Assembly: GCF_017348835.2 (NCBI RefSeq)
Contig: NZ_CP071375.1
DNA: 64,000 nucleotides
Source of the DNA: Escherichia coli
GTDB taxonomy: Bacteria; Pseudomonadota; Gammaproteobacteria; Enterobacterales; Enterobacteriaceae
Strand: one strand, 5' to 3'
Part shown: piece by piece, positions 879-3,520 of the stretch
Numbering within the stretch: the first letter of the stretch is position 1
Layout of the letters: each line of letters opens with the position of its first letter
The notes under the pieces: generated by a model
What the model saw: only the letters and a program-made list of their open reading frames with translations
Database searches by the model: none
What the model was told of the DNA's origin: nothing
Made by a program: the position numbers and the translations under genes

Positions 879-881
879 AAA

Positions 882-1085
882 TCAGTTAATCCCCGTTTGC
901 ACCGAAAGAATATGCTGCAAACTTTCTACCATAATGCGCCCCGACTGAAATAAGCCTTCCTGGATTTCGTTGTTAACATTCACAGCGTGAACCAGGGAGG
1001 CTAATAATACTACTTGCAAGAAGGCAAAAATAAACGCACCGATAATCATAATATGCGTCAGGGGTATTTTCCTTTGCTCCTTCAT
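882..1085 (-). CDS. small hypothetical membrane protein, last gene of the adhesin operon
   Basis: 67 aa with one hydrophobic helix (IMIIGAFIFAFLQVVLLASLV); start overlaps stop of upstream lipoprotein gene by 4 nt. Confidence 0.4.
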   Translation of the reverse strand: MKEQRKIPLTHIMIIGAFIFAFLQVVLLASLVHAVNVNNEIQEGLFQSGRIMVESLQHILSVQTGIN

Positions 1086-1504
1086 TTTAAATAACCCACA
1101 AACTGGCCTTCTTTCATTAAGGCGACTTTTCCTGTGTGATGATAAACAATGACGTTATACAGACCTGACTGATAAACAGTGGCATCTTTATTGTCTTCAT
1201 CAATTGCACATAATGAATCATTGAGATAAGCGAAGTTTTTACTGCTCATTCTAAAGGTCATGCCAAATCCTTTATAAATGGCTTTCTTTGCCGCCTGGGC
1301 ATGTTGTGCGGCTTCTGCATTTTTAAATGCCTGCGCTTCGGAAACACTTAAAATAGCCGTCTGGCGCTGCTGTTCTGCGAGATAACAGGTGTCATGGCTG
1401 ACGCCCTGCGCCTGGCAATCTGCGATGCGGGAAGCGGGTGAGCTACAGCCAGCCAGTAATATAACCGCCAGCAGGGAAAACGATTTAATGGAGCTATTCA
1501 TCAT
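1082..1504 (-). CDS. putative lipoprotein
   Basis: 140 aa; signal peptide plus lipobox LLAGC; sits immediately downstream of the YadA-like gene. Confidence 0.6.
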   Translation of the reverse strand: MMNSSIKSFSLLAVILLAGCSSPASRIADCQAQGVSHDTCYLAEQQRQTAILSVSEAQAFKNAEAAQHAQAAKKAIYKGFGMTFRMSSKNFAYLNDSLCAIDEDNKDATVYQSGLYNVIVYHHTGKVALMKEGQFVGYLK

Positions 1505-1589
1505 TGTTAACCTTAAATAATGTACAAATTAATGAAGAGGTGAAAACCGGCAAGCTTCCTTGCTCTTATTTATATTGAGGATTGAAATA

Positions 1590-2606
1590 TTAGAACGAAT
1601 ATCCCACGCCGACACCCGCGCCGAAATCAGATTGTGTATCCGCAGAGACACCGGCTTTAATCACGGTATGCGTTCCGGCATTAAAAGATGTTCCGACAGA
1701 CACCGCAGATTCACCGTTGAAGGTTCCCGCTCCCGCTGACACCATCATTAAGTCACCGGTTTTCACCTGTGGTTGTGAGGCGATAGCGATGGCAGATGCA
1801 GTTCCCGCATTGGCTTCTTTACGATTGTCATCAACTTCGTTTTTCAGCGAATCGAAATGGTTATTGAGCGTGTTAATTTGCTGGCTGTTATCAGCGACCC
1901 GGTTTTGGGTGTTGGTTAACTGTTGCTGCGTTTGGGTTACGTCTTGTGACAGGCTGTCAATTTGTTCATGTGCCTGGGCAGACTCCTGCGCCAGACTTTG
2001 CATTTGTTTATCGTATTGAGTCCTTTCATTTTGCTGTTGTACTGCCACATCGGTTGTCAGCGCATTCATTTTCTGCCCTTGTTCAGTGGCGGTGCGCTGA
2101 TTAGCCTCATTTTGAGCCGCCAGTCTGGCATTAATCATTTCCTGATAATGCGCGGTATTTTGCGTATCTCCAGTCGCGGCGAGCGTTTTTTGTGTGGCTA
2201 CGATCTGCGCCTGTTGCTCTGTAATTTGCGTTTGCTGGGCGTCAGTTACCGCAGACTGTCGGGCGTTGATCATGCTCTGATAACGGGCAGTTGTCTGTAC
2301 ATCACCTGTAGCGGCAACGGTTTTTTGTCCTGCGTCAGGATCTGTCTGGACAGTGGGAGTCTGAGTGGTATCAGGTGTTTCAGAAGGGATGTAGTGATGT
2401 TCAGTCAAATAGGTATACGCAGCGGGGCTGTTGTCTGTGCGTTCTAAAAAGCGGGTAATCTTCTGCTCAATCTCCGATTGCGACATGCCAGAGTTAATGG
2501 CTGAAAGCTCTGTTGCCGCCGCTTCAATGGTATCACCAGCTAAAACAACAGGGCTGGATGTTGCTGAAATTATGAGTGCCAGTAAAGCTACGTTTACAGT
2601 TTTCAT
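1590..2606 (-). CDS. small YadA-like trimeric autotransporter adhesin
   Basis: 338 aa; N-terminal signal peptide; Q/T-rich stalk with internal repeats (ATGDVQTTARYQSMINAR / ATGDTQNTAHYQEMINAR); C-terminal YadA-type anchor ending GAGVGVGYSF. Confidence 0.75.
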   Translation of the reverse strand: MKTVNVALLALIISATSSPVVLAGDTIEAAATELSAINSGMSQSEIEQKITRFLERTDNSPAAYTYLTEHHYIPSETPDTTQTPTVQTDPDAGQKTVAATGDVQTTARYQSMINARQSAVTDAQQTQITEQQAQIVATQKTLAATGDTQNTAHYQEMINARLAAQNEANQRTATEQGQKMNALTTDVAVQQQNERTQYDKQMQSLAQESAQAHEQIDSLSQDVTQTQQQLTNTQNRVADNSQQINTLNNHFDSLKNEVDDNRKEANAGTASAIAIASQPQVKTGDLMMVSAGAGTFNGESAVSVGTSFNAGTHTVIKAGVSADTQSDFGAGVGVGYSF

Positions 2607-2972
2607 TCATTTTCTCTTGTTCAAAATAAGTTGTATTAATGTTTCTATAAGAAACAAATAATATTGTTTTAAGAAATAAACTGCGTTGCAATTTGATCGA
2701 AATCTACGCCGCCATTTGTGTGATGTAAAGCGCATTTTTGTCTGGTGTAAGCGTAAACACCACCAATAAGAAACCAAAATGGTTTCTTATATAAATAAAA
2801 AAGGAAATTATTTCGTGCTCTTTCAATGTAAAAAAGAGTAAGGACTTGTTTTGATAAGCGAAATAAATTCTGTTTCTGGACTAAACGTGAAGCGGTTCCT
2901 GATGTGTGCTAAAATGCGTTTCTTTGATAAATCTCAATTTTTAAGAGGTTTACGCCAGGCAGGAAAATTTAA

Positions 2973-3335
2973 ATGAATGAATTTGAGAAGATTTTTAATG
3001 AAATGAATCTGGACCGGGCATTGCTACCGATCCTTTTTCGTTCGAACCGGTCGACAGTGTGGAAGTATTTAAGCGGTGATAGTACGGCTCCTGCCTCTGC
3101 CATGTCGCTGATTATGCTGTTGCAGTTGATACAGAAACGAAACCCCGATCTGTTAGCCGAATGGTTAACGCTTTCTGATTTCACCATTCCGCCAGAAGTT
3201 TACCTGGACCAGCCTGATTACTGGAAAGGGTGGGTGTATACCCAACACAAGGTCAATAAAAACGTCCTGGAATATCTAAAAAAACACTATCCGGATGAAG
3301 ACCAAAAAAGTATGAGTAAAGGCCGGGAAGAGTAA
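2973..3335 (+). CDS. hypothetical protein, possible helix-turn-helix regulator divergent from the adhesin operon
   Basis: 120 aa ORF downstream of a 365 bp AT-rich intergenic region; no family recognised. Confidence 0.4.
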   Translation: MNEFEKIFNEMNLDRALLPILFRSNRSTVWKYLSGDSTAPASAMSLIMLLQLIQKRNPDLLAEWLTLSDFTIPPEVYLDQPDYWKGWVYTQHKVNKNVLEYLKKHYPDEDQKSMSKGREE

Positions 3336-3390
3336 ATTGCCAATGCCAGTTAACATTTAACATGGCGGAGGCGGCCTACGGTTTTGGCGT

Positions 3391-3520
3391 GATATGACGC
3401 GCCCGCGTCGCATCAGGTGTCGGTGCACGACTGCCGGATGCGGCGTAAACGCCTTATCCGGCCTACGATTCGGGCATATTTTGTAGGCATGATAAGACGC
3501 GTCAGCGTCGCATCAGGCGA
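3391..3520. repeat. REP/BIME-type repetitive extragenic palindromes
   Basis: Motifs gccggatgcggcgtaaacgccttatccggcctac and tgtaggcatgataagacgcgtcagcgtcgcatcaggc. Confidence 0.65.

Follow-up and report, generated by a model that had tools for sequence, protein, structure and literature searches.

O-island OI-29 of Escherichia coli as a probable four-gene surface module, with GmrA read as a short trimeric autotransporter

Introduction

The Oca family includes short coiled-coil trimeric autotransporters, YadA among them, that have in common a signal peptide, a coiled-coil stalk, an anchor of four strands with a terminal aromatic residue, and a size of a few hundred residues. We take NadA, HadA and DsrA to be further short coiled-coil proteins comparable to the one described here. 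The stretch under study is a 64,000-nucleotide piece of the Escherichia coli contig NZ_CP071375.1 (hereafter the window, whose full length sets all position numbers), and the element of interest is the interval at 879-3520, between cueR and ybbJ. An earlier note, made from the sequence alone, had interpreted this interval as a small trimeric-autotransporter operon with a divergent regulator. That was largely right, but the note missed that the interval is already known: it is the O-island OI-29 of E. coli O157:H7 (z0638, z0639 and z0640), in which the product of the central gene is described in the literature as GmrA, a transcription factor.

Two described systems pair a trimeric autotransporter with a partner encoded next to it. 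In Salmonella, SadA is co-transcribed with the small lipoprotein SadB (Grin et al., 2014; PMC3953254), which has a lipid anchor, a helical segment and a C-terminal beta domain. SadB has ~215 aa, is an inner-membrane protein by virtue of Asp at position +2, ends in a MATH-like domain and is encoded upstream of sadA; the whole operon, like OI-29, is absent from K-12. In Acinetobacter, the periplasmic partner TpgA is encoded beside AtaA, and a global survey of helpers of trimeric autotransporters found no further ones (bioRxiv 10.64898/2026.01.22.700529). That 2026 survey considered only proteins with a YadA head, so a head-less module would lie outside its scope.

OI-29 itself has been described in strain EDL933 as an island of 2,643 bp with the genes z0638, z0639 and z0640 (Yang et al., 2018; PMC5826968). 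That study named z0639 GmrA and presented it as a cytoplasmic transcriptional activator binding the fliA promoter, with a “putative DNA-binding domain” taken from the NCBI CDD; the other genes were treated as hypothetical, and there is no mention of a YadA anchor, a signal peptide, the 67-aa open reading frame (ORF) or the helix-turn-helix (HTH)-like nature of z0640. The assignment recurs in later reviews and in a transcription-factor survey, without any mention of an autotransporter. The genome paper on enteroaggregative E. coli 042 includes in its list a second, uncharacterised trimeric autotransporter (Ec042-0536), encoded a few genes past the type I secretion/CueR locus Ec042-0526-0531.

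Results and Discussion

The interval and its genes

We hold it probable that OI-29 is a cell-surface module of four genes with a long history in Enterobacterales, which about a quarter of E. coli genomes have kept, and we propose that it works as follows. The 338-aa product of z0639 (GmrA) would be a short, head-less type Vc trimeric autotransporter, exported by the Sec system via a cleavable signal peptide. Its last 60 residues would supply four strands of a 12-stranded trimeric barrel, inserted in the outer membrane by the beta-barrel assembly machinery (BAM), and ~255 residues per chain would be displayed as an acidic coiled-coil fibre that diversifies between lineages. The adhesin would be co-transcribed with a lipoprotein, probably of the outer membrane and made of a helix and a small beta-barrel, and with a translationally coupled 67-aa inner-membrane protein; these two would be its likely periplasmic partners. 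The z0640 product would be a diverged XRE-type HTH protein that most likely binds a GTTTCT/AGAAAC array, controls the operon and regulates itself. The effect of z0639 on fliA, fliC and motility would more likely be indirect than direct, one route being an envelope or FlgM-FliA assembly checkpoint.

The DNA of the interval has 100% identity to that of E. coli PE164 and 98% to that of O157:H7, and the proteins of OI-29 in EDL933 are 98-100% identical to those of the window. The published gmrA deletion primers map to 1552-1589 (0 mismatches) and 2607-2645 (1 mismatch) and thus flank 1590-2606 exactly, which identifies GmrA as the 338-aa ORF; the same primer test equates z0638 with the lipoprotein gene and z0640 with the 120-aa gene. 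In RefSeq, the product name is YadA family autotransporter adhesin for the 338-aa protein and lipoprotein for the 140-aa one. Of 5426 complete E. coli genomes, 1401 (26%) have the island at a query coverage of at least 80%, and 1415 have the 120-aa gene, always as a single chromosomal copy. The features of the island are:

882..1085, minus strand: 67-aa single-pass membrane protein, last gene of the operon (ORF list)
1082..1504, minus strand: 140-aa lipoprotein, z0638 (ORF list)
1505..1589, minus strand: intercistronic spacer of 85 bp with an inverted repeat at 1549-1564 (sequence scan)
1590..2606, minus strand: 338-aa ORF, z0639, the published gmrA (ORF list, primer match, RefSeq name)
1593..1772, minus strand: YadA-like membrane anchor, residues 279-338 (Pfam PF03895)
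1773..2537, minus strand: predicted passenger, residues 24-278, with a small N-terminal domain, a Pro/Thr linker and a Q/A/T-rich coiled-coil stalk
2538..2606, minus strand: predicted signal peptide, MKTVNVALLALIISATSSPVVLA then GD (Kyte-Doolittle, conserved n/h/c pattern)
2607..2972, no strand: divergent regulatory region, 366 bp, with six GTTTCT/AGAAAC motifs
2973..3335, plus strand: 120-aa divergent gene z0640, putative XRE/Cro-type HTH regulator (ORF list, family HTH matches)

All the elements that the earlier note had described are present where it had placed them. The minus-strand operon of 338-, 140- and 67-aa ORFs lies where the note had placed it, with the last two genes coupled through a start/stop overlap; the adhesin is YadA-like by its full PF03895 match and its similarity to anchor structures of AtaA, Hia and YadA; the 140-aa protein has the lipobox of a lipoprotein and the 67-aa peptide one transmembrane helix. 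The upstream region is AT-rich, and the interval is accessory within E. coli, being absent from K-12 and from most other complete genomes. That the divergent 120-aa protein is a regulator, which the note had offered as a possibility, is plausible given XRE-type HTH matches in its relatives and its synteny with YadA-anchor operons in other genera.

The 338-aa protein

The 338-aa protein matches the whole of the PF03895 YadA_anchor model (E=1.3e-11, residues 279-338, model positions 1-60 of 60), and its last ~95 residues match anchors in the PDB, namely AtaA (9vnj, 6.8e-8), Hia (2gr7 and 3emo, ~2e-6) and YadA (2lme, 0.018). The AtaA and Hia alignments begin ~35 residues ahead of the anchor, within the coiled-coil segment. 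The anchor stretch is near-invariant across alleles, and the chain ends in ...GVGYSF, with Phe as its terminal residue. At the other end, MKTVNVALLALIISATSSPVVLA, followed by GD, reaches a Kyte-Doolittle maximum of 2.05 at residues 6-24 and has a Sec-type layout by inspection. This n/h/c pattern is kept in all alleles and in the Pseudocitrobacter, Lelliottia and Hafnia orthologues, even where the downstream sequence is unrelated. From the signal peptide and the outer-membrane anchor, export of the protein is predicted, rather than a cytoplasmic location.

Between the two ends, the stalk contains a duplicated QKT(V/L)AATGD.Q.TA.YQ.MINAR unit, and the Pfam and NCBIfam matches to residues 100-270 are all to coiled-coil families. 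The Pfam YadA_head and YadA_stalk models do not match the protein even at E<=10. With 36 Asp+Glu and 18 Lys+Arg, the mature protein has an acidic pI of 4.55. Set beside type Vc proteins, it has the YadA-like anchor, a Sec signal peptide (by inspection), a coiled-coil stalk and the C-terminal aromatic residue, and lacks the head and neck domains; unlike the Oca-family autotransporters, it also fits no YadA stalk model and has no similarity to them beyond its last ~95 residues. On this sequence evidence we read it as a head-less, short trimeric autotransporter, which fits better than the published name does.

Searches of Pfam, NCBIfam and PADLOC found no DNA-binding domain in the protein, only coiled-coil noise such as SMC_prok_B (22.8 bits against a cut-off of 567), TMF_DNA_bd (E=0.31) and LmuB/JetC. 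The domain that the GmrA authors took from the CDD may be a coiled-coil match of this sort. The transcription-factor assignment of GmrA thus appears doubtful from its sequence, and a mis-assignment is probable. A role in anti-phage defence was also considered and rejected: PADLOC gave only coiled-coil matches to the adhesin (LmuB, JetC, DndD) and none to the other proteins.

The passenger is hypervariable between alleles. The 436-aa allele of O145 strain RM12367 has only 51% identity to the 338-aa protein, whereas the 67-aa, lipoprotein, 120-aa, CueR, YbbJ and QmcA products of that strain are 98-100% identical to those of the window. At a coverage of at least 80%, the passenger allele of the window occurs in 1028 of the 1415 genomes that bear the module, and 387 of them (~27%) do not have it. 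The alleles are mosaics of 325-436 aa, with entire coiled-coil repeat units and the N-terminal domain subject to insertion and deletion; the signal peptide and ~110 C-terminal residues are constant across the allele alignment. Among the passenger homologues listed with at least ~270 aa, only four (405-412 aa, one flagged as partial) lack PF03895. Constant ends around a hypervariable passenger would be the usual pattern of a fibre exposed at the cell surface.

The lipoprotein and the 67-aa protein

In the 140-aa z0638 product the lipobox Cys20 is invariant, and a Cys30/Cys40 pair is conserved. The residue at +2 is Ser, so the protein is probably located in the outer membrane. Its predicted structure consists of a long helix (37-69) and a confident 8-stranded beta domain (75-140), which would be a small PliC/MliC-like (PliC/lipocalin-like) beta-barrel, the likeness being one of fold class only. 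The spacer ahead of the gene contains, at 1549-1564, an inverted repeat that could form a terminator-like stem, GGCAAGCTTCCTTGCT. The published expression values of 96 reads per kilobase per million (RPKM) for z0639 and 20 for z0638 would fit partial read-through at this stem.

The earlier note had likened the adhesin and lipoprotein to SadA and SadB. The two pairs do share the co-transcription of a trimeric autotransporter with a small lipoprotein, and both lipoproteins combine a lipid anchor, a helical segment and a C-terminal beta domain. In contrast to SadB, however, the lipoprotein of the window has 140 aa, Ser instead of Asp at +2 and a predicted PliC/lipocalin-like 8-stranded barrel in place of a MATH-like domain on a trimeric coiled coil, and it is encoded downstream of the adhesin. 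Neither the single sequence nor a 24-sequence profile matched any PDB sequence at E<=10, though structures of SadB and YajI are deposited. Without a match in sequence, profile or fold, the resemblance to SadB is one of layout, not descent, and the analogy holds for gene position only. Nor does the lipoprotein have the BamE-like and/or OmpA-like peptidoglycan-binding domain of TpgA-type partners, with which it shares its place beside the adhesin gene.

The start of the 67-aa gene and the stop of the lipoprotein gene overlap as ATGA at 1082-1085. After a basic N-terminus (KEQRK), the 67-aa protein continues with IIGAFIFAFLQVVLLASLV, which forms one strong predicted transmembrane helix (19-residue Kyte-Doolittle mean 2.65). 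The ORF is unannotated in EDL933, and the protein has no match in Pfam, NCBIfam or PADLOC. Its homologues are 91-100% identical within Escherichia, 52% in Pseudocitrobacter and 39% in Lelliottia (tblastn E=1.6e-12), and the same ATGA overlap is found there. The published z0638 deletion (window 1084-1505) removes the A and T of the 67-aa ATG (1085-1083) together with the upstream coupling region. Since it cuts the start of the 67-aa gene, that mutant probably lacks both the lipoprotein and the 67-aa protein.

The divergent gene and the shared regulatory region

The 120-aa protein encoded by z0640 belongs to a small family, with 23 representatives at 50% identity among 1.84 billion proteins, all of them from Enterobacterales. 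One of 21 family members per model matches MqsA_antitoxin (3e-5), Xre-like-HTH (7e-5), HTH_3 (3.8e-4) and HTH_26 (4.5e-4), and some database sources label relatives as XRE-family regulators. The protein resembles XRE/Cro-C1 and MqsA-type HTH regulators in its helix pattern, in a conserved R-S-T...Y/W...G...P-A-S-A motif and in being encoded divergently from its probable target, but differs in a conserved C-terminal extension of ~55 residues that matches nothing known and in lacking a toxin partner. It is plausible from these matches that it is a regulator of the XRE-like HTH type.

The 366 bp between z0640 and the operon contain six copies of GTTTCT/AGAAAC, compared with a mean of 0.31 and a maximum of 4 in 2000 dinucleotide-preserving shuffles. 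The motif scan placed them as follows:

2641 plus, 2650 minus, 2769 minus, 2782 plus, 2872 plus and 2918 plus: starts of the GTTTCT/AGAAAC motifs

The first two copies face each other in the palindrome GTTTCT-ATA-AGAAAC (2641-2655), and TAAGAAACC-N5-GGTTTCTTA (2766-2788) is a perfect palindrome. Pseudocitrobacter and Symbiopectobacterium keep three or four of the positions, and Lelliottia has four copies; the array is absent from the Hafnia, Pectobacterium and Serratia counterparts. A promoter-like TTTACA-17-TAGATT lies on the minus (operon) strand at 2729-2701, inside the best-conserved block, and, by reading of the sequence, a conserved extended -10 element (TGcTAAAAT, 2907-2915) precedes the 120-aa gene, one GTTTCT copy coinciding with the expected transcription start of that gene. 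The array is likely to be the operator of the 120-aa protein, and we regard it as a candidate for that role. A search for the same operator upstream of fliA in K-12 gave one isolated hexamer, with no palindrome and not above chance, and the idea was dropped.

Comparative context

A search for related loci in species-representative genomes found only four. In every arrangement found, a homologue of the 120-aa gene stands divergent from the operon, and opposite this HTH gene lie:

Pseudocitrobacter: a 363-390-aa trimeric autotransporter, a 152-aa lipoprotein and a 68-aa protein
Lelliottia: two trimeric autotransporters (533 and 584 aa), a 137-aa lipoprotein and a 65-aa protein
Hafnia: a 583-aa or 220-aa trimeric autotransporter and a 138-aa lipoprotein
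Pectobacterium: a fragmented trimeric autotransporter and a lipoprotein split in two
Symbiopectobacterium: a truncated trimeric autotransporter and a lipoprotein split in two
Serratia fonticola: a lipoprotein only, with no trimeric autotransporter

In Pectobacterium and Symbiopectobacterium (loci 2877-3444 and 4520-5075) the helix lies in a lipoprotein of 64-68 aa and the beta domain in a second protein, of 115 aa and with a separate signal peptide; as the split is common to two genera, it looks like gene fission and not decay. A small ORF downstream in S. fonticola is unrelated to the 67-aa protein. In Escherichia the module lies between cueR and ybbJ, and in Pseudocitrobacter, Pectobacterium, Symbiopectobacterium and Serratia directly beyond qmcA of the cueR-ybbJ-qmcA cluster. 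Because the neighbourhood is kept across three families of Enterobacterales, the copy is single and chromosomal, and mobility genes are lacking, the comparison suggests old vertical inheritance with repeated, patchy loss, the K-12 lineage included, over recent transfer.

Alternative explanations

The experiments on GmrA (PMC5826968) are the chief evidence for the published reading of z0639 as a cytoplasmic DNA-binding transcription factor for flagella. They include an electrophoretic mobility shift assay (EMSA) with competition on the fliA promoter, a 7.75-fold enrichment in chromatin immunoprecipitation with quantitative PCR (ChIP-qPCR), and gmrA deletions with complementation and motility defects in eight strains, all of which weigh against a surface module as proposed here. 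On the same side of the balance stand the absence of a HeLa or Caco-2 adherence defect in the OI-29 deletion and of a motility phenotype in the z0640 deletion (both PMC5826968). So do the best HTH match of the E. coli 120-aa protein itself, to the HTH part of MqsA_antitoxin, which is below significance (E=0.12), and the poor AlphaFold2 model of that protein (pLDDT 57.6). Lastly, S. fonticola has the lipoprotein and HTH genes beside qmcA with no YadA-anchor gene (locus 4004-5342), which makes a lipoprotein strictly dedicated to the adhesin less likely. Also consistent with a transcription factor are the lowered fliA, fliC and motA expression at unchanged flhDC in the gmrA deletion, the gmrA-fliA epistasis and the increased motility of K-12 carrying the pgmrA plasmid (all PMC5826968), and reviews have repeated the claim. 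These experiments are not refutable by sequence analysis, and the motility phenotype may be real. Even so, we consider a DNA-binding role very improbable for an ORF with a signal peptide and a complete YadA outer-membrane anchor, to which no DNA-binding model fits and whose “DNA”-named matches are coiled-coil artefacts. The strong acidity of the mature protein points the same way, and a passenger that varies so widely in an otherwise identical context is unlike a factor that recognises a conserved promoter. The EMSA used the full-length GmrA precursor expressed from pET-28a, and the ChIP construct carried 3xFLAG directly after the C-terminal Phe, where it would be expected to disturb barrel assembly. 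The “PfliA” ChIP-qPCR amplicon covers the region of the REP (repetitive extragenic palindromic) element and fliX small RNA (sRNA) between fliC and fliA (K-12 locus positions 1895-2092) and, when mapped on this intergenic region of K-12, misses the fliA core promoter near the gene start. It is possible, and here we are tentative, that the motility link is real but indirect, the adhesin or its partners altering the envelope or hook-basal-body assembly and acting via FlgM secretion and FliA autoregulation, or via envelope stress, with no DNA binding. The flagellar cascade includes the FlgM-FliA assembly checkpoint. Unchanged flhDC, lowered fliA, fliC and motA, ~80% of cells without flagella and rescue by fliA in trans are what an effect at this checkpoint would give, and the sequence evidence locates the 338-aa protein in the envelope; yet loss of a trimeric autotransporter is not known to impair flagellar assembly by any mechanism, and adhesins usually oppose motility. 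The complementing pgmrA fragment (primers F-1 and R-1, window 1590-2925) includes, in multicopy, almost the whole divergent regulatory region with all six GTTTCT sites. Effects of the plasmid, those in K-12 included, are consequently not attributable to the protein alone.

The origin of the surface module and the independence of its lipoprotein are the other matters on which readings differ. The earlier note had taken the interval for a recently acquired horizontal island silenced by H-NS through its AT-rich promoter region. Its absence from K-12 and from 74% of E. coli genomes would suit this, as would a G+C content of 31% in 2607-2972 and 42-49% in the four island genes against 52-58% in cueR, ybbJ and qmcA. 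Published expression, which peaks at 37 °C and falls at 30 °C and at high osmolarity, would also be compatible with thermoregulation of the H-NS type. We nonetheless find recent acquisition unlikely, since the module adjoins the cueR-ybbJ-qmcA cluster in four other genera, is never on plasmids in complete E. coli genomes and has no integrase, tRNA or direct repeats at its edges. The AT-rich region, for its part, has motifs and blocks conserved between genera, and transcripts of the operon were detected in lysogeny broth (LB) and Dulbecco's modified Eagle medium (DMEM) (PMC5826968), so that neither half of that claim is supported. The lipoprotein, in turn, might be an independent factor of the periplasm or outer membrane with a fold of the PliC/MliC/ACP class, for example an inhibitor of lysozyme or another enzyme, that is merely co-located with the adhesin. 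We judge this quite improbable. Homology to MliC was rejected: no Pfam model matches the lipoprotein, that of MliC included, and hhalign of its profile to E. coli MliC covers only the signal peptide and lipobox. Moreover, the gene is linked to YadA-anchor genes in Escherichia, Pseudocitrobacter, Lelliottia, Hafnia, Pectobacterium and Symbiopectobacterium.

Implications

If the proposed surface module is followed to its full extent, two claims result which we put forward jointly, at something short of an even chance. GmrA would really be an outer-membrane trimeric autotransporter, its flagellar link being either an unrecognised coupling from the envelope to FliA or an artefact. The lipoprotein and the 67-aa protein would be a third kind of dedicated partner of trimeric autotransporters, after SadB and TpgA, in a module under an undescribed family of XRE-like regulators found only beside such operons. 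The lipoprotein, 67-aa protein and regulator of the conserved four-gene adhesin module have not been described before, and the 120-aa protein defines a small regulator family that lacks annotation. In reviews of regulation in enterohaemorrhagic E. coli, GmrA figures as a transcription factor acquired laterally; should it be a surface adhesin, this part of the flagellar map needs re-testing. The module would then also represent an overlooked, uncharacterised and antigenically variable surface fibre in O157:H7, O55:H7, O145 and many extraintestinal pathogenic (ExPEC) and avian pathogenic (APEC) lineages, and its conserved partner genes would offer a compact system in which to learn what short trimeric autotransporters need besides BAM.

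Boundaries and flanking sequence

The features on either side of the island genes are:

471..878, plus strand: cueR, left-flank core gene (135-aa ORF; annotated cueR in PE164 and O157:H7, 100% identical)
3340..3512, no strand: cluster of REP elements and bacterial interspersed mosaic elements (BIMEs) at the right edge (genome-wide repeats, Rfam)
3513..3971, minus strand: ybbJ, right-flank core gene (152-aa NfeD-family ORF)

As the earlier note had stated, cueR and ybbJ are adjacent in K-12: in MG1655 they end at 514400 and 514401, with 0 bp separating them, and by the ORF list and raw sequence ~2.63 kb lies between them here. In the junction alignment against K-12 the insert follows the cueR stop and is bordered on its other side by the 3' end of ybbJ; only the final few codons of ybbJ are altered and otherwise nothing is replaced. 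The alignment showed no direct repeats flanking the island, and together with the ORF list it showed no integrase, transposase or tRNA at the edges, so that mobile-element signatures were ruled out there. The REP elements that the note had placed at the right edge are present, as imperfect palindromic units dispersed genome-wide: of 5426 complete E. coli genomes, 5425 have this type of sequence, at a median of 30 places in each, window ~3378-3518 being the portion of the island query that matches all E. coli genomes many times, and Rfam naRNA4 matches at 3386-3463 on the minus strand (69.5 bits against a gathering score of 59.5).

In O145 RM12367 an additional 407-aa ORF (locus coordinates 182-1405), with no match in NCBIfam or PADLOC, separates cueR from the operon, and a similar gap of 1.3 kb lies between cueR and the 67-aa gene in Escherichia sp. 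E1V33 and E. whittamii. The window starts with part of an HlyD-type type I secretion adaptor (1-474), which in PE164 and O157:H7 follows the genes of an ABC exporter and of a giant BapA/SiiE-like adhesin, the latter a pseudogene in both; in K-12, ybaT occupies the place of these type I secretion genes upstream of cueR. The other Rfam matches in the window (12319-12407, 25457-25591 and 47011-47084) comprise the AgrB antisense RNA, the ES036 and STnc480 sRNAs and one tRNA. The first 25 kb of the window are ordinary E. coli core, with ybbP, gcl and the all genes, and are identical to PE164.

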